Shown here one piece after another: positions 19,540 to 60,074 of a stretch of 64,000 nt of DNA (position 1 is its first letter; the number at the start of each line of letters is the position of its first letter). Location: IMG/VR virus record IMGVR_UViG_2671180890_000004; one strand, given 5' to 3'. The DNA comes from a virus (lineage: Duplodnaviria; Heunggongvirae; Uroviricota; Caudoviricetes). A model generated the notes under the pieces. It had not been told where the DNA came from and did no database searches. It saw only the letters and a list, made by a program, of their open reading frames with translations. The position numbers were made by a program, and so were the translations under genes.

Positions 19540-20696
19540 GTGATATTGCTGGTCGTATTACCGTCATATTCCTTTAAATATGAACCATAATGACGAAATA
19601 ACATTTCCGGCCCTTTATGCCCCATTTGAGCTGCAAGCCAAAACAGGTTTGCTCCCCGGCTGATATGGCGGGTGGCGAATGTATGCCTAGTTTGATATGG
19701 ATTTCTGTAACGAATACCTGCTTTTCGCAATGTTGGCACCCATGCTTTTTTCCTGATTGCATCAGCACTTGCCCAGGGCTTATTGGTCTTTGGATCTTCA
19801 AAGACAGTAGCATCCTTCATGAATGTAAATGGCTTCTGATTTATCAGCGCCAACATTGCTTCTTCAGTCAGTTCAACTTTACGGGTACCGGCTTTTGTCT
19901 TTGTCCCTTTGATAACACCGACAACACTTGCGCTCTGGACATGGGCAGTTTTTCCAACAAAGTCGATATCACGCCATCGAAGGGCACATAATTCAGAACT
20001 ACGCAGGCCTGTATGTATAGCGAACCGGAACAGATTTTCCCATTGTTTTTTTCCGGCTGCTGCTAGTAATGCATCAACTTCTGCTGGTGATAGCGGATCA
20101 ACCACGTAGCTGCTTTCTGCTTCTGACTTATCACTTTGGTAGCGCGAAGCAGTTACCAACGATACGGGGTTAATTTGAAGTACCCCATCGGTTACGGCTT
20201 CATCAAGTGCTGACCGCAGGAAAGATAACTGGTTGCGAATTGTTTTTAAGGTCGTTTTCTGGCTTTGAATCCACGCTTTCAGGATTGCTGGTGTTAATTC
20301 ACTTGCAGGGCAAATGTGGAGTGAGGCTAACGCACTACGGCATTTTTTATAACCACCAATCGTAGAGGGTGAAAGTTTTCTTGTTTCGCAGATTTCAAGA
20401 TATTCGTCCAGGTACATCTTTACCGTTTTGCCTGCAGCAGCATTACCAAAAATTTTCAAACGAGCAGAACGGGGAAAATATTCTGCATAAATGAATGTTC
20501 CCCTTTCGATCTTATTATGGATTTCGCCGAGTGTACGCTCGGCGTATTTAATGTTCTTTGGTGTTACTTCCAGATTGGAAAGCGGCTCACGACATCTAAC
20601 TCCTTTGTAGGTGAAAGTTATATTGATCGTTTCTCCCTGGCGGTGTTTCCTGATTGTTACGCCGCGCGGTAGTTTGAGCAGTTTTGTCTGGCCCAT
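19524..20696 (-). CDS. int: tyrosine recombinase (phage integrase)
   Basis: C-terminal catalytic region with conserved R (LRSSELCALRWRD), HxxR (HTFATRH) and tyrosine near LFRHYGSY; adjacent to the att core. Confidence 0.85.
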   Translation of the reverse strand: MGQTKLLKLPRGVTIRKHRQGETINITFTYKGVRCREPLSNLEVTPKNIKYAERTLGEIHNKIERGTFIYAEYFPRSARLKIFGNAAAGKTVKMYLDEYLEICETRKLSPSTIGGYKKCRSALASLHICPASELTPAILKAWIQSQKTTLKTIRNQLSFLRSALDEAVTDGVLQINPVSLVTASRYQSDKSEAESSYVVDPLSPAEVDALLAAAGKKQWENLFRFAIHTGLRSSELCALRWRDIDFVGKTAHVQSASVVGVIKGTKTKAGTRKVELTEEAMLALINQKPFTFMKDATVFEDPKTNKPWASADAIRKKAWVPTLRKAGIRYRNPYQTRHTFATRHISRGANLFWLAAQMGHKGPEMLFRHYGSYLKEYDGNTTSNITKKAT

Positions 20697-20902
20697 TTTG
20701 CAACCTCACTAAGATCAATCCACCTCTCCTTAACGCCTTCAACCTTTAAAACCTGAACACCTTCACGCCAAACACCGCGCTGTACACGTTTGTTTATTGC
20801 TTCAGGAGTTTCGCCAGTTTCTTTGCAATAAGTTGAGATAGGAACACAATCGAGGTTCAGCATACGTTTCTCCATTATCCCGTCTGCACACGGGAGCAAC
20901 AT
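20657..20902 (-). CDS. xis: excisionase-like DNA-binding protein
   Basis: Small basic protein overlapping the int start; likely true start at MEKRM (20875) with AGGAG-like RBS. Confidence 0.6.
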   Translation of the reverse strand: MLLPCADGIMEKRMLNLDCVPISTYCKETGETPEAINKRVQRGVWREGVQVLKVEGVKERWIDLSEVAKWARQNCSNYRAA

Positions 20903-20904
20903 TA

Positions 20905-21795
20905 TTAACGAATAGTGTCGTTACTTTGAAGTACAGCAAATGCCATTAATACTTCTAAAGTATATCTTCTATAAAATTTAACAAAACCAACATAGAAAAC
21001 ATAGACGAAGAAAAAGCTAAGCATTATTGAAAGTAAACTATAAAGATAATCACTATGAGTACATAATCGATAAATAAAGGTTGGAACTGATACCCAAAAT
21101 GAAATTATAAAGATTAAACATATGTTTCTGCAAAAACCATATAATGCAACATAGTTTTGAATTTTTGTTTGATGTTGTTTTGAAAACTCATAAACATAAT
21201 GATATGCCAATCTGAAGAGATCATCATCAAGTCCGTTTTTATCTTGTAATAATTGGCGATTTGTTATGAACTTTTTCTCATAACCTTCTTTGATCATTAA
21301 CCATGTTGTATTAGCTAAATGAAATGGTAGAGATTGAGAATAACATAGTTTTTGTGTTATAAAATCCCATAGTATTATTGGACATAATACGCATTTGATT
21401 ATGCGATTCTTTATTTTTGTTTTTTTATCAGCGCTTCTCTCATCGCATGATGGGCTACAAATGCTTTCTGAGGTATCTATCAATTTTTTAAATAGATATT
21501 TGGAAGGATATCCTAATTCTTTATTCATGTATTTTTCGATAAAAAATGCTGACGTGATAGAAATAAAATGTCCAGCTATATAAGATATAATAACTATTGA
21601 AGCGTAGTTCAAAATGCCAAAGATTTGACTTTGACCTCTGAGCAATTCACTTAAGTCAATAACAATATCTAGATCGAATGTCAAACCACAGAAATACATT
21701 AATAGGATGAAAAAACCACCTGGTATTAAATATCCAAGAAAGTCATAGAATGAGAATGGATTTTGATTCATTGTTGCTCTCCAATAATTTTTCAA
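20905..21795 (-). CDS. polytopic membrane protein (296 aa), AT-rich cargo
   Basis: Very AT-rich codon usage; several predicted TM helices; immediately upstream of xis in the leftward operon. Confidence 0.5.
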   Translation of the reverse strand: MKNYWRATMNQNPFSFYDFLGYLIPGGFFILLMYFCGLTFDLDIVIDLSELLRGQSQIFGILNYASIVIISYIAGHFISITSAFFIEKYMNKELGYPSKYLFKKLIDTSESICSPSCDERSADKKTKIKNRIIKCVLCPIILWDFITQKLCYSQSLPFHLANTTWLMIKEGYEKKFITNRQLLQDKNGLDDDLFRLAYHYVYEFSKQHQTKIQNYVALYGFCRNICLIFIISFWVSVPTFIYRLCTHSDYLYSLLSIMLSFFFVYVFYVGFVKFYRRYTLEVLMAFAVLQSNDTIR

Positions 21796-21879
21796 TTTGT
21801 AATATAACCTATATCTATATGTTAATAAATTACTTATATGTTCTTTTATGGCAGAGTTTGAATTCGTACGTGCTGATTT

Positions 21880-22431
21880 TTACGACTCAGTTAACTCTTT
21901 AAAGCGTTCCATAAACATCCCATAGGTATGGCCTGGCGACAGTGGAATAACTTTGAACATCTCTGTTGCCGGGATACCTTCCAGTACGGGCCAGAAAGAG
22001 CCATCATCAAGCCCGAGATCGCGGCGTTCGGTTGCCAGCATGATGAGATCGGCATATTTCACGGGCGTACTCATAACCGGGGGTAACCCGTATTTCTCAC
22101 GGATTACGGCGTCTATTTTTTCTTCCATCCGTTTATAGTCAGGAAGAAGGCGTTTCAGTGGCGCCGGGATGTCCTGGCAATACGCTTCTGTTGCATCATG
22201 CATTAACGCTTCAAAAGCAAATTCCTGCGGTACCAGTTGGCTGCAAAGCACCGCATGTTGGGCGACGCTGTAGAAATGTGAAAGATGTCCTGCAAAGCGA
22301 CAGATATTTGAAAGAGAAACCGCGATATCGTTAATAACGATGTCGTCTTTATTTATCCTGTCATAATAAAAATGCTTCCCGGAAAAAGTTTTAATAAATG
22401 ACATTTTGTTCTCCACGTATATGCGCTGCAC
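21880..22431 (-). CDS. HD-domain phosphohydrolase (YfbR/YfdR-like 5'-deoxynucleotidase family)
   Basis: H...HD motif (RFAGHLSH...ALMHDATEAY). Confidence 0.55.
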   Translation of the reverse strand: MQRIYVENKMSFIKTFSGKHFYYDRINKDDIVINDIAVSLSNICRFAGHLSHFYSVAQHAVLCSQLVPQEFAFEALMHDATEAYCQDIPAPLKRLLPDYKRMEEKIDAVIREKYGLPPVMSTPVKYADLIMLATERRDLGLDDGSFWPVLEGIPATEMFKVIPLSPGHTYGMFMERFKELTES

Positions 22432-22531
22432 CGCGCTGAATTCTGGTAAAAGAAAGCCCTCACCATCCGGCGATTATTGAGTCAATTACGTTTCCATAAA
22501 TGCCCCCGCAGGGGCATTTGCAGTAATGAAA

Positions 22532-23356
22532 TCAGGCGGTAAAAGTACCAATAAAGGTTTCTACTTTGCTGTCCTTGAATTTCTCAACAAGCAGATCACG
22601 AAATTCGTTAGCCATTTCTTCCTGCACTGCTTCCAGCTGAATAATGCGCAGAACCAGTACAGGACGATCGCCAGTGATAATGCTGAGGCGTAATTTAAAC
22701 GGACGTTCTTTCAGGCCTTCAAACGGAACGCATTTAAATTCAAATGTCACTGGCATAATATCTTTGGTCTTCGCTTCGACAGACTCCATCAGGGAGCGTT
22801 TGCCGCTGAAGTCATTGTCTTCAAAATCAGCGGTCTGGTTTGCTTCAATCGTGATTTTACGGACTGCCGCAGCCGCTTTTGTTGCCTGAATGACATCACC
22901 ATTAGCATCAAAGCCCACAAGGTAGTCGGCCCAGTCTTCAATCCATTCTGCCAGTGACTTCTGGGAGTTACGCTCGCCGTTAACAGACAACAGAGCAGAG
23001 AACGGTGCTGTCTTTTTCAGTTTGAGAGTGGCGGTGTTATCTGCGTGACCAGGCTCATCAATAGTACCCAGGTTAAGCACACTGACGGCACGCATATTAT
23101 CGGCATCGATAAAGCAGCGGGTGCCTTCATCCGCAAGATCTTTAGAATAACGGGTAAAGTCATCGATGCTGGCAGTGGAAAGCGCACCACGGAAACGGAA
23201 GCGATTTAAATTAAATTTTTCCAGATCATGAATGCGGAAATTTTCAGGTAATGCCACTGCGTCGGCACCAATCTTACTGATAATTTCATTAACACCCTGA
23301 GCAGAAATAAGGGCATGGATTTGATTAATTGCGGTTGCGTCTAAGTTCTGAGACAT
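22532..23356 (-). CDS. hypothetical early-left protein (274 aa)
   Basis: ORF only; tentative recollection of YfdQ-like prophage proteins, unverified. Confidence 0.45.
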
Positions 23357-23421
23357 AATAAGTCCTCACTATATAAAGATATTCAGTGATGAGATAAATA
23401 ATCAGTTAATTAAGAACGATA

Positions 23422-23784
23422 TTAATGACCTGCTGCGCGGAGTTTTCCGTCAGGTTCACCGGCAAGAGTCAGTAATTGTCCCTGGTCTTCCTGCAGAATA
23501 GTCAGGCGACCACCGCGATTGACATACATCGGCGTTTCGGTGGTGTCTTCTTCGGAAATTTTCCCGCGGTTAGTCGGACGAACATATGAGAGTTTGTGTT
23601 TTATTTTCACACGGTTCTCATCAAACGGTTCGATTTCCAGGTTGAGCGAGACCTTACCTTTGGTTTTCGTGTTCATCACACCGGAAGCGACTTCACTGAG
23701 AACTGCGCCGATTTTGGTTTCAAATACGCCGCCGTCCAGCTCCCCGATAAATTCCTGCACGTTGGTACTGCGTTCGCTAGCCAT
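23422..23784 (-). CDS. hypothetical protein (120 aa)
   Basis: Start at MASERSTN with AGGAG RBS 8 nt upstream. Confidence 0.45.
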   Translation of the reverse strand: MASERSTNVQEFIGELDGGVFETKIGAVLSEVASGVMNTKTKGKVSLNLEIEPFDENRVKIKHKLSYVRPTNRGKISEEDTTETPMYVNRGGRLTILQEDQGQLLTLAGEPDGKLRAAGH

Positions 23785-24384
23785 TTTGCTGCTCCTCATC
23801 ATATCGACCCTGCAAGGCCGATTAGTTTCTCCACAAAACAGAGAAGAACACCTGCGGTGGCAGCCGCCCCGGTGGATTGGGTTATGAGCCCGTCGTCCGG
23901 TGATGCTCTTCTCTGTTTTGTAAAAAGAGCGGTACCAGCCGGAAGCAAGGGTAGAAGCTGGTACCGCCAGGACTACACACAGCATAAAGTTGTGGTGCCG
24001 GGTGCCTCCCGGTGCCTGGCGAAGGTTGCACACCAGGCGGGTGGGTATCCACAGAAGGTCGACTGTCAGCCTCAACCTTAACCCGCGTGCGCTGAGCCGC
24101 ATTCACCACAACGCTAAGGATTCTCTCAGGTTGAAAATACTTAGCTGTTATGTGCCTGTCTTTTCACCACTTCAGGCTCGGTGGTATCCTTTTAAGCCCG
24201 TATACATAAAAGGAAAATCAAATGACTTTTGATGAAAAAGAACTTGATAATGCAATTAATAAAATCATCGTAACGTCGCTCTTTTCCTGTCTCAGCGACA
24301 CTCAGCAAAAACAGTTCTACGAATCGGCTTTCAACATGATCGAGCGTTGTTGTTTCTGCGATGCCGACGAGTTACCTGAAAAAA

Positions 24385-24681
24385 TCAGGAAACAGTTGGC
24401 TGATGCTCTTCGAGTGCGACTTTCTGACCAATTTTCTGAAATGTGCTCTCCGAATTTGGACAAATAGAAAAAGGCCATTTCCATTCAGGGTCTGATGGAA
24501 ATACTTCAGCCTGTTCCAAAGCACGGCGTAAAGAGAACACAACTCCAGCCATAATCTGATGTTTCCCATTGGTCCAGCTATCGCCGCTCTGATCTACAGG
24601 GGCGGCTATGTCGTATGACCAAACGACTTCACAGTTATTGTTTAAAATCTGGACTTTCATTTCATACACCTGCTTTAACAT
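24385..24681 (-). CDS. small hypothetical protein (possible first gene of leftward early operon)
   Basis: ORF only; overlaps a plus-strand ORF (24222..24467), so one of the two is probably spurious. Confidence 0.3.
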   Translation of the reverse strand: MLKQVYEMKVQILNNNCEVVWSYDIAAPVDQSGDSWTNGKHQIMAGVVFSLRRALEQAEVFPSDPEWKWPFSICPNSESTFQKIGQKVALEEHQPTVS

Positions 24682-24817
24682 GAGTGCCTAGTGGCACAAC
24701 ATGACTCAACGAATCATCCTGGACTTCATATGCCCCAGGCGGCTACTTCGTGGGCGTCCTGCCTGTTCGTTGTTTCGCTTAGGTACATTATGTATCTCAA
24801 GGGTACATTGTCAAGTA

Positions 24818-24840
24818 TAAAAAAACCTGCCGAAGCAGGT
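24818..24840 (-). terminator. rho-independent terminator after the repressor gene
   Basis: Stem ACCTGC / GCAGGT with the U-tract on the minus strand. Confidence 0.5.
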
Positions 24841-24853
24841 TCATAAACATTGA

Positions 24854-25528
24854 TTAGGCTTTGATTTTGTATCTTCTTGGTTTTCCTGAGAAAATCACTG
24901 TACCAATTATAGAGCAATTACCGTTGATCTTAATGTAAGGCTCAGGCCAGTTTGGGTTTAACGCTTTGAGATAACGCTGTGTCCCATCTTCTATCAACCT
25001 TTTGAAGGTGGTTTCACCTGTATCGTGCATCAATGCAATAACGTCGTCACCGTGGCAGGCAGGTACTTCAGGATCGACAAAAATCATGTCTCCCGGGCGG
25101 TACTCATCAATCATTGAATCACCTATCACCCGCAAGATATAAGTCATTTCCCCACAGGGTACAGGGCAGGGATACGTTTCTGCTGTGCTCAAATCAACCT
25201 CAGAATATCCAACTTCTTTCCATGCTCCGGCCTGTACCCATGATATGACAGGGACTAATGTGATTTGTTTATTAGTGATTGAAACATCAGGTTTTTTTGT
25301 GATGTTCGTTGTCTGGTGTTCTTGATCGAGCCATCCGACAGGCAGGTCGAAACATTTTTCGATGTGTCGTGCCATGCTGTCACCGATATTTTTAGTAGCA
25401 CCATCTCCCATAAATCTGCTGGTCTGGGTTGGCTCGCGATCAATCATAGTGGCAAAGGAAGAATTCCCGCCAACACCATCTCTCAGTTTTCTGGCGTTAG
25501 ACCGCCGGATGTCATGGATTGTTTTCAT
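24854..25528 (-). CDS. cI: CI-like repressor (HTH + S24 LexA-like peptidase)
   Basis: C-terminal S24 motif VIGDSM and a Lys-containing partner region; divergent from the cro-like gene. Confidence 0.8.
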   Translation of the reverse strand: MKTIHDIRRSNARKLRDGVGGNSSFATMIDREPTQTSRFMGDGATKNIGDSMARHIEKCFDLPVGWLDQEHQTTNITKKPDVSITNKQITLVPVISWVQAGAWKEVGYSEVDLSTAETYPCPVPCGEMTYILRVIGDSMIDEYRPGDMIFVDPEVPACHGDDVIALMHDTGETTFKRLIEDGTQRYLKALNPNWPEPYIKINGNCSIIGTVIFSGKPRRYKIKA

Positions 25529-25543
25529 AACGAAATTAAAACC

Positions 25544-25564
25544 CTTGTACCGTTAAGGTACAAG
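25544..25564. promoter_or_regulatory. operator-like perfect palindrome in the cI-cro intergenic region
   Basis: CTTGTACC-gttaa-GGTACAAG; a second palindrome AATATGTA-n9-TACATATT at 25592-25616 overlaps the cro RBS. Confidence 0.45.
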
Positions 25565-25618
25565 TATCTTGAAGGTTCATTTCAATCATGTAATATGTAT
25601 ACCGGAGGTACATATTGT

Positions 25619-25819
25619 ATGAAAGCGTATTGGGACTCTTTAACCAAAGAACAGCAGGGCGAGTTGGCCGGAAAAGTTGGCTCAACACCTGGCTACTTAC
25701 GGCTGGTTTTCAATGGCTATAAAAAAGCCAGTTTTGTGCTGGCTAAAAAACTTGAGCAATGCACGTCAGGTGCAATTACGAAATCTGACTTAAGACCGGA
25801 TATCTATCCGAAAGATTAG
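25619..25819 (+). CDS. cro: Cro-like HTH regulator
   Basis: 66-aa ORF with GGAGG RBS, divergent from the repressor. Confidence 0.65.
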   Translation: MKAYWDSLTKEQQGELAGKVGSTPGYLRLVFNGYKKASFVLAKKLEQCTSGAITKSDLRPDIYPKD

Positions 25820-25850
25820 CAGAACACTTTCAATTTTTAACCACAGAACG

Positions 25851-26414
25851 ATGAGGCTAATCGTGGGTAAGCATCACTGGAAAATAGAAAAACAGCCTGA
25901 GTGGTACGTGAAAGCTGTCAGAAAAACTATCGCGGCGTTGCCGGGGGGTTACGCTGAAGCGGCTGACTGGCTCGATGTAACAGAAAACGCTTTATTCAAC
26001 CGCCTTCGTGCAGATGGCGATCAGATTTTCCCGCTGGGATGGGCAATGGTTTTACAGCGTGCTGGTGGCACTCACTTCATTGCTGATGCTGTGGCGCAGT
26101 CTGCAAATGGCGTCTTTGTGTCTCTTCCTGACGTCGAGGATGTGGACAACGCCGATATCAACCAGCGCCTGCTGGAAGTCATTGAACAGATTGGCAGTTA
26201 TTCCAGACAGATTCGTTCAGCAATCGAAGACGGTGTAGTGGAACCGCATGAGAAGACAGCAATTAACGACGAGCTGTATCTCTCAATTTCGAAGCTGCAG
26301 GAGCATGCAGCACTGGTCTACAAAATCTTTTGCATTTCAGAAAGTAATGACGCCCGCGAGTGTGCAGCTCCGGGCGCCGTGGCGTGTCGTGACTGTGGAG
26401 AAACTAACGCATGA
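25851..26414 (+). CDS. hypothetical early regulator (187 aa)
   Basis: Position equivalent to cII/YdaT-like genes; no firm motif. Confidence 0.4.
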
Positions 26415-26769
26415 ACAGTTTAACAACACACTACCGTCGCTCGCAACTGATTGCGCTTCCTGTACCGGGTGGAAAAGCGAAGATGGAGTATTGCTATGCA
26501 GTTAATGTACCAGGTGACAGGGAAATTGTAACCCACAGCTTTGCTGAGTGGGCTGTGGGTGATTTCAACCGGCAGAAGGAGACAGTCCTTTGCGAGAAGT
26601 TAACCGCTGGTTCAAAGATCACTACGGAGTGCCCGTCAGAGTCATTCGTTGGGAGCCGGAAACACAACGGGTTATCTACCTCCGCGAAGGCTATGAGCAT
26701 GAGTGCTTCAGCCCGCTCGAACAGTTTCGTCGTAAATTCAGGGAAATAGAGGTCGGTCATGAGCACTAA
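26411..26769 (+). pseudogene. hypothetical gene with apparent frameshift
   Basis: Protein-like translation switches from frame 2 (26411-~26600) to frame 1 (~26590-26769); the annotated frame-2 tail is low-complexity. Confidence 0.3.
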
Positions 26770-27700
26770 ATTAACCGGCTATGTATGGGATGGTTGCGCA
26801 GCGTCAGGCATGAAATTATCCAGCGTGGCAATTATGGCCCGCCTGGCTGATTTCAGTAATGACGAAGGTGTGTGCTGGCCATCAATTGAAACCATTGCCC
26901 GCCAGATTGGCGCGGGGATGAGTACCGTCAGAACGGCTATCGCACGGCTGGAAGCAGAAGGCTGGCTAACGCGTAAGGCGCGTCGCCAGGGTAACCGCAA
27001 TGCGTCGAATGTTTATCAGCTTAACGTTGCGAAGCTTCAGGCAGCGGCATTTTCTCAACTGTCAGATTCTGACCCGTCAAAATCTGACGCATCAAAATCT
27101 GACCCGTCAAAATTTGATGCGTCGAAATCTGGTAAAAAAGCGGGTTTTCACCCGTCAGAATCTGGCGGGGATCCGTCAGTAAAATCAAAACATGATCCGT
27201 CAGATAAAAAACCTTCTCGTCCGGACGCTTCGCAACCGGACACGCAGACGGCTGAACAGGATTTTTTAACTCGCCATCCTGATGCGGTTGTATTCAGCCC
27301 TAAAAAGCGCCAGTGGGGGACGCAGGATGATTTGACCTGCGCACAGTGGCTCTGGAAAAAAATCATCGCCCTGTACGAGCAGGCTGCCGAATGTGACGGC
27401 GAGGTGGTTCGTCCCAAAGAACCGAACTGGACAGCCTGGGCAAACGAAATTCGCCTGATGTGTGTGCAGGATGGTCGTACTCACAAACAAATCTGCGAGA
27501 TGTACAGCCGCGTCAGCCGCGATCCGTTCTGGTGCCGTAACGTGCTCAGCCCGTCGAAGCTGCGGGAAAAATGGGATGAGCTTTCCCTGCGCTTATCGCC
27601 GTCCGTAAGCACGTACACCGAAAAACGCGAAGACCCGTACTTCAAATCCAGTTACGACAACGTGGACTACAGCCAGATCCCGGCAGGATTCAGGGGGTGA
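26759..27700 (+). CDS. replication initiation protein (lambda O-like), contains ori iterons
   Basis: N-terminal HTH region (SVAIMARLADFSNDEGVCWPSIETIARQIG) and internal iterons coding a DxSKSD repeat. Confidence 0.75.
   Translation: MSTKLTGYVWDGCAASGMKLSSVAIMARLADFSNDEGVCWPSIETIARQIGAGMSTVRTAIARLEAEGWLTRKARRQGNRNASNVYQLNVAKLQAAAFSQLSDSDPSKSDASKSDPSKFDASKSGKKAGFHPSESGGDPSVKSKHDPSDKKPSRPDASQPDTQTAEQDFLTRHPDAVVFSPKKRQWGTQDDLTCAQWLWKKIIALYEQAAECDGEVVRPKEPNWTAWANEIRLMCVQDGRTHKQICEMYSRVSRDPFWCRNVLSPSKLREKWDELSLRLSPSVSTYTEKREDPYFKSSYDNVDYSQIPAGFRG
27062..27133. repeat. origin iterons (four to five ~15-bp direct repeats, CGTCAAAATCTGACG-like) followed by an A-rich tract
   Basis: Directly visible tandem units at 27074, 27090, 27104 and 27120. 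Confidence 0.7.
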
Positions 27701-28191
27701 TCATGAGTCTGTTAAATGACGTTCAGAAATTCATTGAAGCCCATCCGGGGTGTACTTCCGGAGACATTGCGGATGCTTTTGCAGGTTACTCACGGCAGCG
27801 CGTTCTGCAGTCTGCAAGCAAGTTACGTCAGAGTGGGCGTGTGGCTCACCGTTGTGAAGGAGATACACGCAGACATTTTCCGCGCCTGACTGAGAGAGCG
27901 CAGGAACCGGAACCACAACCAGTTCGAGAAACCAGATCTGTGCGCAATTTCTATGTCGGCACTAACGATCCTCGGGTGATTTTGTGCCTGACCCGCCAGG
28001 CGGAAGAACTGGAGTCCAGGGGCTTATACCGTCGTGCTGCAACCGTGTGGATGGCGGCATTCCGTGAAAGCCACTCCCAGCCAGAACGAAACAATTTTCT
28101 GGCGCGTCGTGAGCGGTGCTTACGGAAAAGCAGCAAGCGCGCTGCATCGGGTGAAGAGTGGTATCTGTCAGGGAATTACGTGGGGGCTTAA
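27697..28191 (+). CDS. hypothetical protein (164 aa)
   Basis: ORF coupled to the O-like gene. Confidence 0.4.
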   Translation: MIMSLLNDVQKFIEAHPGCTSGDIADAFAGYSRQRVLQSASKLRQSGRVAHRCEGDTRRHFPRLTERAQEPEPQPVRETRSVRNFYVGTNDPRVILCLTRQAEELESRGLYRRAATVWMAAFRESHSQPERNNFLARRERCLRKSSKRAASGEEWYLSGNYVGA

Positions 28192-28844
28192 TGAGTAATA
28201 AATATTGCCAGGCGCTGGTGGAACTGCGGAACAAACCAGCCCATGAACTGAAGGAAGTGGGCGATCAGTGGCGCACGCCGGACAACATTTTCTGGGGAAT
28301 TAACACCCTGTTTGGCCCGTTTGTTCTGGATCTGTTTACTGACGGTGATAACGCCAAATGTGCCGCGTATTACACGGCGGAAGATAACGCGCTGGCGCAT
28401 GACTGGTCAGAACGTCTTGCGGAGCTTAAAGGTGCTGCCTTTGGTAATCCCCCATACAGCCGCGCCAGTCAGCATGAGGGGCAATACATCACCGGCATGC
28501 GTTACATCATGAAACATGCCAGTGCCATGCGTGATAAGGGCGGGCGCTATGTTTTCCTGATCAAAGCGGCCACCAGCGAAGTGTGGTGGCCGGAAGATGC
28601 AGATCATATTGCTTTTATTCGCGGGCGTATTGGTTTTGAACTGCCTGCCTGGTTTATACCGAAGGACGAGAAGCAGGTGCCGACAGGCGCTTTCTTCGCT
28701 GGTGCTATTGCTGTTTTCGACAAGACCTGGAAGGGACCGGCAATCAGCTACATCGGGCGTGATGAACTTGAGGCATGTGGTGAGGCGTTTCTGGCGCAGG
28801 TTCGCCAGCAGGCGGAAAAACTGGTCAGGGAGATGGCGGCATGA
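28191..28844 (+). CDS. phage N6-adenine DNA methyltransferase
   Basis: NPPY catalytic motif (GNPPYS); start at MSNKYCQ. Confidence 0.7.
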   Translation: MSNKYCQALVELRNKPAHELKEVGDQWRTPDNIFWGINTLFGPFVLDLFTDGDNAKCAAYYTAEDNALAHDWSERLAELKGAAFGNPPYSRASQHEGQYITGMRYIMKHASAMRDKGGRYVFLIKAATSEVWWPEDADHIAFIRGRIGFELPAWFIPKDEKQVPTGAFFAGAIAVFDKTWKGPAISYIGRDELEACGEAFLAQVRQQAEKLVREMAA

Positions 28845-29167
28845 CGACGTTAACTCAATGCCAGCAGCAGGTGCTGGATATGCTGATTTCTTACCAGAAA
28901 GAACGTGGCTTCCCGCCAACCAATCAGGAGGTGGCAACCATGCTGGGATACCGTTCAGTGAATGCAGCGGTGGAACATCTTCGCGCACTGGAGAAAAAAG
29001 GCGTCATCACGATAAAGCGTGGCGTGGCCCGGGGTATCACTCTTCATACCGCGGTGAAGGACGACGACAGCGAGGCGGTCGGGATTATCCGCTCACTGCT
29101 TGCCGGTGAGGAAAACGCCAGGCTGCGTGCAACCCACTGGTTACATGAGAGAGGCCTGAAAGTATGA
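28841..29167 (+). CDS. LexA-N-terminal-like winged-helix DNA-binding protein
   Basis: LTQCQQQVLDMLISYQKERGFPPTNQEVATMLGYRSVNAAVEHLRALEKKG resembles the LexA DNA-binding domain. Confidence 0.5.
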   Translation: MTTLTQCQQQVLDMLISYQKERGFPPTNQEVATMLGYRSVNAAVEHLRALEKKGVITIKRGVARGITLHTAVKDDDSEAVGIIRSLLAGEENARLRATHWLHERGLKV

Positions 29168-29553
29168 AGCTGATCCTGCCTTTCCCGCCCAGCGTGAACA
29201 CGTACTGGCGACACCCCAACAAAGGGGCGTTTGCAGGTAAGAGCCTGATAAGCGCGGCGGGGCGAAAATTCCAGAGCGCGGCGTGCGCAGCAATAGTTGA
29301 GCAGTTACGTCGTCTGCCGAAACCAACGTCGGCACCTGCTTCAGTGGAGATCGTGTTGTTTCCTCCGGATAACCGGATCCGCGATCTGGACAACTATAAC
29401 AAGGCGCTGTTTGACGCCCTGACCCACGCGGGTGTGTGGGAAGACGACAGTCAGGTGAAAAGAATGCTGGTGGAGTGGGGACCGGTTATCCCGGAAGGGA
29501 AGGTCGAGATCACTATCAGTAAGTACGAGAAAACGGCGGGTGCAGCCGCCTGA
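29164..29553 (+). CDS. rusA: Holliday-junction resolvase RusA
   Basis: RusA-like pattern including RDLDNYNKALFDALT. Confidence 0.8.
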   Translation: MKLILPFPPSVNTYWRHPNKGAFAGKSLISAAGRKFQSAACAAIVEQLRRLPKPTSAPASVEIVLFPPDNRIRDLDNYNKALFDALTHAGVWEDDSQVKRMLVEWGPVIPEGKVEITISKYEKTAGAAA

Positions 29554-29572
29554 TTAAGAGGAGAAACGAAGT

Positions 29573-30382
29573 ATGAATAATCTGATGGTCATTGATGGTA
29601 TTGAAGTTCGTCGTGATGCTTATGGGCGTTACAGCCTGAACGATCTGCATCGCGCTGCAGTAGCATCTGGTGCAAATGCCAGAACCAAGGAGCCGGGAAA
29701 GTTTCTTTCCAGCCAACAAACTGTTGAGCTTGTTCATGAATTGACCAACACCCAGAATTTGGGTGTTGACCCGGTGAGTGTGATTCATGGGGGAAATGAA
29801 CGGGGAACGTATGTCTGCAAGGAACTGGTGTATGCCTATGCAATGTGGATCAGCCCGTCATTCCATCTGAAGGTGATCCGTACTTTCGATATGGTAACCA
29901 GCGCACCGGAAAAATTATCCGGACAGGCTGCTGACAAGATGCAGGCTGGCGTGATCCTGCTGGACTTTATGCGCCGGGAGTTAAACCTGTCTAACTCTTC
30001 AGTGCTTGGTGCCTGTCAGAAACTCCAGGAGGCTGTTGGCTTACCGAATCTGGCACCGCGCTATGCCATTGATGCTCCTGCTGACGCGCCTGATGGCTCA
30101 AGCCGCCCCACGCTATCATTGAGTGCACTGCTGAAGCAGTATGGTATCCGCCTGACAGCTAATCAGGCATATCACCAGATGGCGAAGCTGGGGATCGTTG
30201 AACAACGTGAACGATACAGCCGCACTGCGATTAACAACATCAAAAAATTCTGGTCGCTGACGGCGAAAGGCTGCATGTTCGGCAAGAACATCACCAGTCC
30301 CGCAAATCCGCGCGAGACGCAGCCGCATTTCTTCGAATCCCGATTCCCTGAGCTGTTAAAGCTGCTCGATACCGTTCATTGA
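29573..30382 (+). CDS. KilA-N domain protein
   Basis: N-terminal KilA-N-like region (VIDGIEVRRDAYGRYSLNDLHRA). Confidence 0.55.
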   Translation: MNNLMVIDGIEVRRDAYGRYSLNDLHRAAVASGANARTKEPGKFLSSQQTVELVHELTNTQNLGVDPVSVIHGGNERGTYVCKELVYAYAMWISPSFHLKVIRTFDMVTSAPEKLSGQAADKMQAGVILLDFMRRELNLSNSSVLGACQKLQEAVGLPNLAPRYAIDAPADAPDGSSRPTLSLSALLKQYGIRLTANQAYHQMAKLGIVEQRERYSRTAINNIKKFWSLTAKGCMFGKNITSPANPRETQPHFFESRFPELLKLLDTVH

Positions 30383-30383
30383 G

Positions 30384-31379
30384 GTGACCGTGAGAGCACT
30401 ACTGACCCCTGAAATTGCCCCGCGTATGGGGATCGTATTGTTCAGACCAGGTTCAGAGCTGATGCCCTTGTTTATGCAGGGGCGTGTCTTGCTGGAGCCT
30501 GAGCCGGAACGTTATTCATCTTTCGCCAGTGGTGCCGTTCCGGCGGCATCACAACCGCTGGCGGATGATCCTGCCGTTCGGGCCGTGTTCCGCAATGAGG
30601 CAGTGATCCGTCGTGCTGGTGGCGTGGAATGTCTTGAAAGCTGGTTACTTCGTGAAAAAGGCTGCCAGTGGCCTCATTCCGACTGGCACAGCGAGAACAT
30701 GACAACAATGCGACACGCTCCGGGCGCAATCCGTTTGTGCTGGCACTGCGATAACCAGCTGCGCGATCAGTTCACGGAACGGCTGGAATCAATGGCAACG
30801 GATAACAGTGCCCGCTGGGTGTTGTCTGTTGTGCGTCGGGATCTCGGTTTTGATGATAGTCACGTTGTGACAATGCCGGAACTGTGCTGGTGGCTGATTC
30901 GTAATGATCTGGCGGATGCCTTACCGGAAAGTGCAGCCCGTAAGGCACTGAGATTACCGAAGCCTGTTGTGCCGTCTGTTACCCGGGAAAGTGACCTTAT
31001 GCCTTCGGTTCCTGCCACCAGCATCATCCAGGATAAGGCGAAAAAGGTGCTGGCGCTGAAAGTGGATCCGGAGTCGCCGGAGTCTTTTATGTTACGCCCC
31101 AAACGTCGCCGCTGGGTTAATGAAAAGTACACGCGATGGGTTAAGACGCAGCCGTGCGCATGTTGTGGAAAACCTGCTGATGATCCCCACCACCTGATAG
31201 GTCACGGTCAGGGTGGAATGGCTACAAAAGCGCATGACCTCTTTGTGTTGCCTTTGTGCAGAAAGCATCACGACGAGCTGCATGCGGATACCGTGGCATT
31301 TGAAGAGAAGTATGGCTCCCAGCTGGAGCTGATATTTCGTTTTATCGATCGTGCACTGGCAATTGGCGTACTGGCCTGA
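30384..31379 (+). CDS. DUF968-family phage protein
   Basis: C-terminal Cys/His cluster (QPCACCGK...HHLIGHG...CRKHHDELH). Confidence 0.55.
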   Translation: MTVRALLTPEIAPRMGIVLFRPGSELMPLFMQGRVLLEPEPERYSSFASGAVPAASQPLADDPAVRAVFRNEAVIRRAGGVECLESWLLREKGCQWPHSDWHSENMTTMRHAPGAIRLCWHCDNQLRDQFTERLESMATDNSARWVLSVVRRDLGFDDSHVVTMPELCWWLIRNDLADALPESAARKALRLPKPVVPSVTRESDLMPSVPATSIIQDKAKKVLALKVDPESPESFMLRPKRRRWVNEKYTRWVKTQPCACCGKPADDPHHLIGHGQGGMATKAHDLFVLPLCRKHHDELHADTVAFEEKYGSQLELIFRFIDRALAIGVLA

Positions 31380-31381
31380 TT

Positions 31382-31738
31382 TTGTGGAGAAAGTTGATGC
31401 GTGATATGTATGAAGTATTGGACCGCTGGGGTGCATGGGCTGCAGCAGATAACAGTGGTGTGGACTGGCAGCCTGTTGCTGCAGGGTTTAAAGGTTTACT
31501 ACCTCATGGAAAGAAAACACGCCAACAATGCGATGATGATGAAGGAATCATGATTGACAGCTGTGTTGCGCGATTGCGGAAATATAAGCCCGAAGAGTAT
31601 GAGTTGGTTATTGCTCATTTTGTTATCGGCATCTCACTAAGAACTATTGCAAAGAAGCAGAAGTGTTCTGATGGGACAATAAGAAAAGAGTTGCAAACAG
31701 CTCTTGGTTTTCTGGATGGTGTGCTTTCAATGTTGTAA
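31382..31738 (+). CDS. late-gene antiterminator Q (QuuD/Q21 type)
   Basis: MRDMYEVLDRWGAWAA...WQPVAAGFKGL...CDDDEG matches the QuuD-type Q family (recalled); likely start at 31397. Confidence 0.7.
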   Translation: MWRKLMRDMYEVLDRWGAWAAADNSGVDWQPVAAGFKGLLPHGKKTRQQCDDDEGIMIDSCVARLRKYKPEEYELVIAHFVIGISLRTIAKKQKCSDGTIRKELQTALGFLDGVLSML

Positions 31739-31742
31739 TATT

Positions 31743-31766
31743 AGGGGGGATTACCCCCCTTTTTTT
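31743..31766 (+). terminator. rho-independent terminator immediately after Q
   Basis: Stem GGGGGG-atta-CCCCCC followed by T7. Confidence 0.7.
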
Positions 31767-32299
31767 CTCTGTTGCTTTAATAAAATTTTAATATTTTGTC
31801 TGATTATGATGAGGCAATGTAATAAAAGAAATACCGTTAGTATTGCAAGCCATACGCAAAATAAGCATGCATATAAATTAGTTGAAAGCCCAATAGTGAA
31901 TTGTGCAATTGCTGTTGTGATAGAACATAATATTGATGTATTAATAAATGAGGATAAATTGTCTAAAGGTTTATAAAGTACACTATCATTGATTTTGTCA
32001 ATAGGTATACCAGTGGCAATGCTATAAATTTCCTTATATTCCTGAGTTGCAAAAACCTTATCGCGTAAATTTATTATGACAAAGGTATGCAGGCTCAATA
32101 AAAATGAGCCCACGGAAATAAAACCGGAGAAGAGATAGCCTCGTAAGTTTTTATGATAAAAATCAAAAAAGTTAACACTTACTTTAGGTGTGTTTCTGTA
32201 CAATAGGTAAAGTGCAAGCAATGCCAGGATCGAGAATGCAAGCAGTGTAAGGTACTGATACCTCAATCTTTTATTTATTAGCCATTCATATAAAGGCAT
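31751..32299 (-). CDS. four-TM membrane protein (182 aa), second gene of AT-rich cassette
   Basis: Four hydrophobic helices; overlaps the upstream gene by 14 nt; very AT-rich. Confidence 0.6.
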   Translation of the reverse strand: MPLYEWLINKRLRYQYLTLLAFSILALLALYLLYRNTPKVSVNFFDFYHKNLRGYLFSGFISVGSFLLSLHTFVIINLRDKVFATQEYKEIYSIATGIPIDKINDSVLYKPLDNLSSFINTSILCSITTAIAQFTIGLSTNLYACLFCVWLAILTVFLLLHCLIIIRQNIKILLKQQRKKGG

Positions 32300-59490: not shown

Positions 59491-60074
59491 TGGCATTCAG
59501 AATGAGTGAACAAGCACGGACCATAAAAATTTATAATCTGCTGGCCGGAACTAATGAATTTATTGGTGAAGGTGACGCATATATTCCGCCTCATACAGGT
59601 CTGCCAGCAAACAGTACCGATATTGCACCACCAGATATTCCGGCAGGCTTCGTGGCTGTTTTCAACAGTGATGAGGCATCGTGGCATCTCGTTGAAGACC
59701 ATCGGGGTAAAACGGTTTATGACGTGGCTTCCGGCGACGCGTTATTTATTTCTGAACTCGGTCCGTTACCGGAAAATGTTACCTGGTTGTCGCCGGGAGG
59801 GGAATATCAGAAGTGGAACGGCACAGCCTGGGTGAAGGATACGGAAGCAGAAAAACTGTTCCGGATCCGGGAGGCAGAAGAAACAAAAAACAGCCTGATG
59901 CAGGTAGCCAGTGAGCATATTGCGCCACTTCAGGATGCTGTAGATCTGGAAATCGCAACGGAGGAAGAAACCTCATTGCTGGAAGCCTGGAAAAAGTATC
60001 GGGTGTTGCTGAACCGTGTTGATACATCAACTGCACCGGATATTGAGTGGCCAGAAGAACCAGACACCGTGTAA
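59490..60074 (+). CDS. tfa: tail fibre assembly protein
   Basis: Size and position after stf. Confidence 0.75.

Follow-up and report, generated by a model that had tools for sequence, protein, structure and literature searches.

Judging by its sequence, the window, by which we mean the whole stretch of 64,000 nucleotides that was analysed (IMG/VR record IMGVR_UViG_2671180890_000004), carries an SfV/e14-type lambdoid prophage of Escherichia coli; positions 23700-24300 match E. coli QA-1986 83 with 100% identity and Shigella phage SfV with 97.8%. According to the ORF list, SfV and RefSeq, the order on the minus strand is cI/ymfK, orf33/ymfJ-like, the RNA cassette that is the subject of this work, yfdP, yfdQ, yfdR, xis and int (Table 1). 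A preliminary description had singled out this segment as a GC-rich stretch with no convincing ORF, located between two small minus-strand genes inside the leftward early operon, and all of this is borne out. The two genes are orf33/ymfJ-like and yfdP, GC content is 0.545-0.585 at 23700-24199 compared with 0.355-0.49 in the left flank (23200-23799) and 0.38-0.455 in the right one (24100-24599), and the only frames crossing the segment are an in-frame upstream extension of yfdP and some short overlapping ones, none of them conserved. As for the operon, we located a near-consensus promoter (TTGACA-16-CATAAT, 24814-24787 minus, scoring 11/12 in the promoter scan) together with two operator-like sites, ATGTACCCTTGAGATACAT and ATGTACCTAAGCGAAACAA, of the types ATGTACC..GATACAT and TGTACC..GGTACA, that repeat the cro-adjacent operators at 25545-25563 and 25594-25614. 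Since promoter and operators at this place make up PL, the cassette is an untranslated stretch situated ca. 560-990 nt into a repressor-controlled early-left transcript, after its first ORF. Neither the promoter scan nor reading of the sequence gave a convincing internal promoter upstream of the core described below, and a Pfam search found no match for orf33, YmfH or YfdP. An 81-aa ORF on the plus strand (24222-24467) overlaps orf33/ymfJ-like (24385-24681, minus), as ymfI and ymfJ do in the e14 element of K-12, and neither member of this pair has a Pfam match. Elsewhere in the window (59833-60031, plus strand) there is a full-length match to the Rfam family IS009 (RF02111; 229 bits, E 4e-56).

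Table 1. Features of the early-left operon and of the RNA cassette, in window coordinates.
Feature	Position	Strand	Basis or remark
cI/ymfK	25528-24854	-	ORF list; SfV and RefSeq gene order
cI terminator	24842-24823	-	Directly upstream of PL
Early-left promoter PL, overlapped by two operator-like sites	24814-24769	-	Promoter scan, operator repeats
orf33/ymfJ-like, which heads the PL operon and precedes the cassette	24681-24385	-	ORF list; orf33 in SfV, ymfJ in e14
Conserved leader hairpin GCCUG-N-CAGGC, then ACAUAACA	24178-24150	-	Folding; homologous stretches upstream of KilS (Rac) and of the core (phiES15)
Hairpin GCUAAGUAUUUUC...GAGAAUCCUUAGC abutting the core on its 5' side	24145-24113	-	Inverted repeat and folding
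STnc100-family "type 2" core, 126 nt, five helices and a pseudoknot	24112-23987	-	Rfam, model R1, covariation
Core P1	24112-24104 with 23997-23989	-	
Core P2	24100-24085	-	
Core P3	24084-24082 with 24041-24039	-	
Core P4	24038-24031 with 24021-24014	-	
Core P5	24012-23998	-	
Core pseudoknot	24079-24073 (AAGGUUG) with P4 loop 24028-24022 (CAACCUU)	-	
Unpaired stretch UAUGCUGUGUGUAGUCCU, candidate seed of the KilS-like sRNA	23986-23969	-	KilS identity, conservation
KilS/DicF-type intrinsic terminator (13-bp stem, 15-nt loop, CUUUUUA)	23968-23921	-	Inverted repeat; folding z = -4.6
Y-shaped module: 22-bp basal stem, arm A (tRNA-fMet-like stem-loop), variable arm B	23921-23833	-	Folding z = -6.7
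CGGGCUCAUAACCC, tip of arm A	23892-23879	-	Identical to metY anticodon stem-loop
Inverted repeat ACAAAACAGAGAAGA.../...TCTTCTCTGTTTTGT	23833-23857 and 23897-23921		25 nt, 84% complementary
Inverted repeat GCGGTACCAGC/GCTGGTACCGC	23929-23939 and 23957-23967		11 nt, 100% complementary
Inverted repeat CCGGGTGCCTCCCGG	23998-24012		
yfdP, first gene downstream of the cassette	23784-23422	-	ORF list; orf32 in SfV

The three inverted repeats listed in the preliminary description are all present in the sequence, although the spacing of ca. 75 bp given for ACAAAACAGAGAAGA and TCTTCTCTGTTTTGT did not hold, as 39 nt lie between the arms and 59 nt between the 14-mers that had been quoted. A further 9-bp long-range pair that was absent from that list joins GTTGTGGTG to CACCACAAC (23989-23997 and 24104-24112). 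Structure prediction on both strands of 24145-23825 gave z = -5.9 for the minus and -3.1 for the plus strand, that is, folding beyond chance and strand-specific, and the single modules reached z values of -3.1, -4.6, and -6.7 against shuffled sequence. The paired regions are kept in related prophages with compensatory changes, both in the helices of the core and, by comparison with Salmonella phage ST64B, in the terminator stem. The segment is a non-coding block made up of three folded RNA modules, all read on the minus strand, and each of them belongs to or stands near a described family. Just before the first module, ST64B, phiES15, and P1 have a different hairpin at the spot that abuts the core.

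This stretch has been annotated as a gene before. The copy in the e14 element of K-12, which is 97.6% identical, appears as the CDS ymfH (b1142; record L234 5070-5381, equivalent to window 23799-24109), "hypothetical protein" calls lie over the segment in many RefSeq genomes, and in the window strain PGAP predicts a frameshifted pseudogene at 24109-23799. One could therefore take the segment for a protein gene (103 aa in K-12) or a decayed copy of one, a reading that we find scarcely credible. The frame is not conserved, there being in-frame stop codons in the translation of 24109-23799 and a 1-nt deletion of ymfH relative to the window, located in the loop of core helix P5. Substitutions inside helices are compensatory and indels are confined to loops. 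Besides, YmfH has no Pfam match, and the same core is found in many unrelated contexts with no spanning ORF. The stops, the frameshift, the P5-loop indel, the lack of any Pfam match and the compensatory changes together identify the ymfH ORF as an annotation artefact. A genome-wide screen (bioRxiv 10.1101/2020.06.22.160242) is reported to have picked up over-expressed "ymfH" as a trigger of the RcaT toxin of retron-Sen2; as the cloned stretch is the RNA cassette, this trigger could be RNA and not protein.

The first module, a core of five helices, aligns with the Rfam family STnc100 (RF02076) over the full model (positions 1-206/206) with 45.1 bits (E 4.1e-8). An Rfam covariance scan had been named as a check of the segment, and its outcome depends on the cut-off: the permissive threshold returns this full-length STnc100, but the score lies below the gathering threshold of the family (47 bits) and the whole-window scan at that threshold leaves the segment unlisted. 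We collected core loci from viral contigs by their invariant 3' motif and by the 5' motif of the subtype seen in the window (>120 loci each) and distinguished two subtypes, type 1, which is Rfam-certified, and type 2 (P2 = GCGGCUnAGCGCACGC), to which the core of the window belongs. A covariance model (R1) made from 16 type-2 cores, with the window sequence left out, found the window with 90.0 bits (E 2.7e-26) as its sole match there, and scored 127 bits in the dicB leader of Qin, 119.5 in the kilR leader of Rac, 93 in ST64B and 75 in e14. It also retrieves the certified type-1 copies of records L010, L014, L024, and L026 at 54-66 bits, which ties type 1 and type 2 together. The core has in common with STnc100 the full-length model alignment, helices P1, P2, P4, and P5, the invariant GGUGAAU and CACCGGGAGGCACCCGGCACCA, a 3' terminator and its presence in prophages of Enterobacteriaceae. 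It differs in P2, which is GCGGCUCAGCGCACGC and not CCCCCUGUGCGGAGGGG, and in its place in the early-left operon, whereas STnc100 occurs among late genes, close to Q, stx or lysis genes. With these shared helices and invariant motifs, the core is homologous to the certified members. The family is known to be transcribed, with 11 transcribed copies in EDL933, one of them confirmed by Northern blot (PMC5331693); the Hfq-bound sRNA EcOnc27 (EcOnc27/sRNA103) overlaps an STnc100 copy (PMC12711010), and PasD has been described as STnc100-related (bioRxiv 10.64898/2026.05.13.724894). We found no function in the literature on the STnc100 family.

The fold of the core is well supported by covariation. 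When 18 type-2 cores were aligned with MAFFT, 94.6% of the cells of the proposed helices were paired vs. 30-39% with slid partners. Compensatory changes were seen in 15 of the 34 core pairs; P1, P4, and P5 covary, P4 in 7/8 of its pairs, and P5 is split 9:9 between G-C and U-A. The G-U pairs in P1 and P4 indicate that the folded strand is the minus one. Two stretches, GGUGAAU and GGAGGCACC, are conserved to an extreme degree. In addition, the stretch just 3' of P2/P3 pairs with the loop of P4 to form a pseudoknot that covaries in more than 15 variants, e.g., AAGGUUG/CAACCUU in the window, AAGGCUG/CAGCCUU in phiES15, CAGUUAA/UUAACUG in Qin, UGGUUAU/AUAACCA in P1, AGACUGACAAA/UUUGUCAGUCU in record L016, and CCAGUC/GACUGG and others in type 1. 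The gap between cognate and non-cognate duplex energies is modest (-11.4 vs. -8.4 kcal/mol) because many variants share CCAG/CUGG, and the list of covarying pairs is stronger evidence for the pseudoknot than these energies. We considered the core as a tRNA-like substrate of RNase P and set this idea aside; the topology is suggestive, but there is no D- or T-arm similarity, ARAGORN finds no tRNA and the ACCA forms part of the closing helix. Nor does any known riboswitch family match the segment in Rfam scans at gathering and permissive thresholds.

The second module (23986-23921) is, on sequence grounds, a near-identical homologue of the 3' half of KilS, the sRNA of the Rac prophage (K-12 b4833), and a more distant one of DicF of Qin. 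UGCUGUGUGUAGUCCUGGCGG, which comprises the seed and the start of the stem, is identical to KilS in 21/21 nt, and both continue into a large-loop terminator with a U-tract. The setting is also alike, i.e., the leader of an early operon downstream of the prophage repressor, with a type-2 core adjacent. The seed stretch is conserved in ST64B, phiES15, and the records L016 and L071, and the terminator stem covaries between the window phage and ST64B while its loop varies. However, the 5' part of KilS (GUGGGAGUGCGCCUCC...) is absent from the window, the loop of the terminator has another sequence, and the order is KilS, core, kilR in Rac vs. core, KilS-like module, Y-shaped module, yfdP here. In K-12, Hfq RIL-seq detected KilS and a Northern blot verified it, and it pairs with its yncL target (PMC8175672). 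With DicF the module shares a homologous terminator hairpin (UUGGCGGUAUCAG...CCGCCCUUUUU) and its embedding in an operon downstream of the repressor gene, the type-2 core of Qin being located between dicF and dicB, but the 5' seed is not the same. It cannot be assigned to the Rfam DicF family (RF00039), scoring 16.3 bits against a threshold of 48 (28.5 bits for the e14 copy). The ftsZ leader was tried as a target and discarded, as the duplex energy was z = +1.1 vs. shuffles while the DicF control recovered its known site.

Among the possibilities raised in the preliminary description were a regulatory RNA and a processed leader. Both are reasonable, with a close KilS homologue in the middle and a member of the STnc100 family in front. 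The explanation that we favor, and consider probable, is that the segment is a non-coding RNA cassette of the PL operon, where partial termination gives rise to an Hfq-type sRNA and read-through allows yfdP and the genes beyond to be expressed. Transcription would start at PL (ca. 24780, minus), pass through orf33 and then produce ca. 600 nt of untranslated RNA with the three folded modules. Part of the transcripts would end at the large-loop terminator (ca. 23921), giving an Hfq-type sRNA that would base-pair with its targets in trans. We infer this partial termination, and with it the expression of the cassette and its dependence on Hfq, because the homologues KilS, DicF, and STnc100/EcOnc27/PasD are expressed and those tested are Hfq-associated. 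The sRNA might consist of core, seed and terminator (ca. 190-225 nt) or of a shorter processed 3' form, in either case with the conserved unpaired stretch of 17-18 nt as candidate seed, and the core would probably be a stable structured or host-factor-binding domain for the RNA attached to it. The remaining transcripts would carry the Y-shaped module and continue into yfdP, yfdQ, and yfdR and as far as xis and int. The long, perfect basal stem of this module would be a likely point of processing by RNase III. Several points count against this explanation: PL should be repressed in the lysogen and no convincing internal promoter was seen upstream of the core, the STnc100 score is slightly under the family cut-off and that for DicF far below its own, pairing with the ftsZ leader does not surpass that of shuffled sequences, and the conservation and spacing of the core fit another role better, as set out below.

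The distribution of the core brings in a second explanation. In K-12 it is found in Qin between dicF and dicB, ending 33 nt before the start codon of dicB, in Rac between the sRNA gene kilS and kilR, and in e14 as ymfH. It precedes tciA, within the ban operon, in P1 and SJ46, kil in the Cronobacter phage phiES15, and a yfdP homologue in ST64B. Among the collected loci, type-2 cores either end 33-45 nt before the start of DicB, KilR or TciA-like genes or, as in the window, are followed by the terminator module. Type-1 cores are found in late regions, sometimes as tandem arrays next to tRNA genes, and at one inspected locus the core follows the late promoter downstream of Q and precedes the holin gene. 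The core could act mainly in cis, as a leader element governing the stability, processing or translation of the RNA that immediately follows it (as an insulator, a stabilizer after RNase cleavage, a place where a host factor binds or a sensor of the riboswitch kind), any sRNA being secondary. We rank such a cis-acting or factor-binding core as the main rival of the sRNA explanation and regard it as somewhat unlikely. The spacing before DicB (ca. 55 loci), KilR (ca. 9), TciA/TerB-like and other starts speaks for it, as do the A/U-rich, terminator-free linkers between core and start codon in the relatives, the type-1 copies in the late leader, and the combination of invariant junction nucleotides with a covarying pseudoknot, which is typical of RNAs that bind ligands or proteins. 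Moreover, a core so extremely conserved, and kept in relatives at a fixed 33-45 nt from start codons, is less easily seen as a simple scaffold of an sRNA than as an element that acts in cis or binds a factor. In the window, however, the core precedes a terminator and not a start codon, yfdP starting ca. 200 nt further on, and no known riboswitch family matches. Conserved anti-Shine-Dalgarno or anti-terminator pairings were not found either. A riboswitch-like competition between P4 and the terminator was considered and discarded; the 3' strand of P4 (CGCCAGG) could pair with the base of the terminator (CCUGGCG) in the window, but this pairing is weak in ST64B and phiES15 and poorly conserved.

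Some observations on individual loci can be added here. Certified STnc100 copies are arrayed in tandem, with 3-4 units each, beside phage tRNA genes of late regions (L014 2265-3380; L023 342-1038). With one genome per species, the 5' motif turned up in Escherichia, Shigella, Citrobacter, and Enterobacter, and also in a handful of questionable metagenome bins. The type-2 5' motif occurs in L327, L331, L336, and L339, records labelled Pseudomonas schmalbachii and Veillonella, Collinsella, and Acutalibacteraceae bins, and these are probably contamination or mis-binned contigs of enterobacterial phages. In phage lambda (J02459 44844-44943, the late leader from tR' to S) the arrangement GUGCUCUUUCC-GUUGUGCUGAAU...CAGCACAAC shares its flanking string and closing helix with the type-2 core of record L092 but lacks the GGAGGCACC hairpin; by its sequence, this element may be a diverged relative of the core family. 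Salmonella phage ST64B also has, close to its regulator genes (L006 408-596), a C4 antisense RNA (79.7 bits) as well as isrK (64.3 bits). Finally, in Salmonella phage 118970_sal3 (L129 2400-2500) the T-arm-like strings GCTGGTTCGATTCCAGAC and GGTCCGTTCAATTCGGAC lie just upstream of the core and may be remnants of tRNAs, although ARAGORN detects no tRNA there.

The third possibility raised in the preliminary description, a nut-like antitermination site, fared worse. By this account the segment would be nut-like (boxA/boxB plus N) or put-like (an RNA modifying RNA polymerase) and would permit read-through of terminators in the early-left operon. It is true that this is a promoter-proximal untranslated stretch in an operon with an intrinsic terminator, that the P5 hairpin has the size of a boxB (5 bp, 5-nt loop), that CGCUCUUUUUACAA after the terminator resembles a boxA and that type-1 relatives come directly after late promoters. 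Nevertheless, we consider this very improbable. The annotation of the operon contains no N-like gene, and orf33 has no Pfam match. The boxA-like string is in the window the U-tract of the terminator and in P1 the 3' arm of the Y-shaped module. The same applies to GAAUGCUCUUUCC, conserved just 5' of the core in P1, SJ46, sal3, and lambda, which resembles the boxA of rrn and which we examined as a boxA/nut candidate and rejected as the 3' arm of the Y-shaped module or of another flanking hairpin. Position with respect to terminators is also inconsistent among the relatives, since the core lies upstream of the KilS/DicF-type terminator in the window and downstream of it in Qin and Rac, and the tandem copies of late regions each have their own terminator. 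The put RNAs are ca. 70 nt long with two stem-loops (PMC9378689). The segment resembles put of HK022 and nut of lambda in being a structured RNA in the promoter-proximal untranslated part of a lambdoid early operon, but there is no similarity of sequence or model (positions 20000-32000 of HK022 gave no match to the family motifs or to R1), size and architecture are different, and there is no N protein.

The last module, which in the favored explanation would be carried by the read-through transcripts, is Y-shaped and behaves as an independent unit. It is located 5' of the core in P1, follows a tRNA-Arg downstream of Q in Klebsiella phage GZ7, and travels with yfdP, in the absence of the core, in Stx2c phages and mEp460. 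More than 60 variants from phage contigs keep the architecture, with covariation in the basal stem and in the helix that supports arm A (CCGGG/CCCGG, CCUGUA/UACAGG, CUGUCUG/CGGGCAG, CUGAAUA/UAUUCAG). At its tip, arm A displays CGGGCUCAUAACCC as a stem of 3 bp with a 7-nt loop, and 14/14 nt are those of the anticodon stem-loop of metY, the initiator tRNA of E. coli, down to the three G-C pairs that characterize initiators; this is the sole match in the window, where 0.01 would be expected by chance. The conservation of this motif is partly owed to the way in which the variants were gathered, as the motif itself was the search pattern. Distant BLAST matches are also centered on the tip. The element is not a tRNA. 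It is part of a Y-shaped RNA whose basal stem has 22 bp, and it keeps only 3/5 bp of the anticodon stem, the lower two pairs being gone. ARAGORN finds no tRNA gene in the window, and the Rfam scans gave no tRNA match. In arm B a resemblance to tRNA-Arg(CCU) was considered and abandoned, being present in only a few variants.

From this likeness one might suppose that the module is a functional mimic of the anticodon arm of the initiator tRNA, acting as a decoy or site for a VapC-type tRNA-fMet nuclease, for MetRS or for the ribosomal P site. The VapC toxins of Shigella and Salmonella are said, in work of Winther and Gerdes from 2011, to cut tRNA-fMet in the anticodon loop. The identity with metY in a motif hardly expected by chance, its position at the tip of an arm with a covarying helix, in the region that distant BLAST matches retain, and the real tRNA genes that adjoin the module in some phages are all compatible with mimicry. 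Even so, a functional mimic appears decidedly unlikely to us, as the collection by motif inflates the apparent conservation, ARAGORN is negative and only part of the anticodon stem is kept, arm B is mostly not anticodon-like and the e14 copy has an altered loop.

Whatever the role of the single modules, the protein gene ymfH of K-12, a hypothetical protein or pseudogene in many RefSeq genomes, is reassigned here to three conserved RNA modules, and the fold of STnc100 gains a pseudoknot supported by covariation. STnc100/PasD/EcOnc27, KilS, and DicF, in turn, are brought together as pieces of a single modular system, which lambdoid and P1-like phages reshuffle. In the papers that we consulted there was no description of ymfH as an RNA, of the core pseudoknot, of the link between STnc100 and the leaders of dicB and kilR, or of the initiator-tRNA-like arm, the last of which is a concrete lead. 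Because dicB and kilR, which are cell-division inhibitor genes of K-12, have this core immediately in front of them, the function of the core is testable in a standard strain. A more far-reaching view, which we hold to be rather unlikely, takes the cassette as not just an sRNA gene but a group of structured RNAs of novel kinds aimed at the host. The core would be a dedicated sensor or factor-binding domain gating the expression of attached sRNAs and of lethal genes in prophages (dicB, kilR, kil, tciA, holins), and the Y-shaped module would truly mimic the anticodon arm of the initiator tRNA, as a decoy or site for a factor directed at tRNA-fMet (VapC-type). If this were true, K-12 would carry three unrecognised copies of a new class of regulatory RNA, namely the "ymfH" of e14 and the leaders of kilR and dicB.
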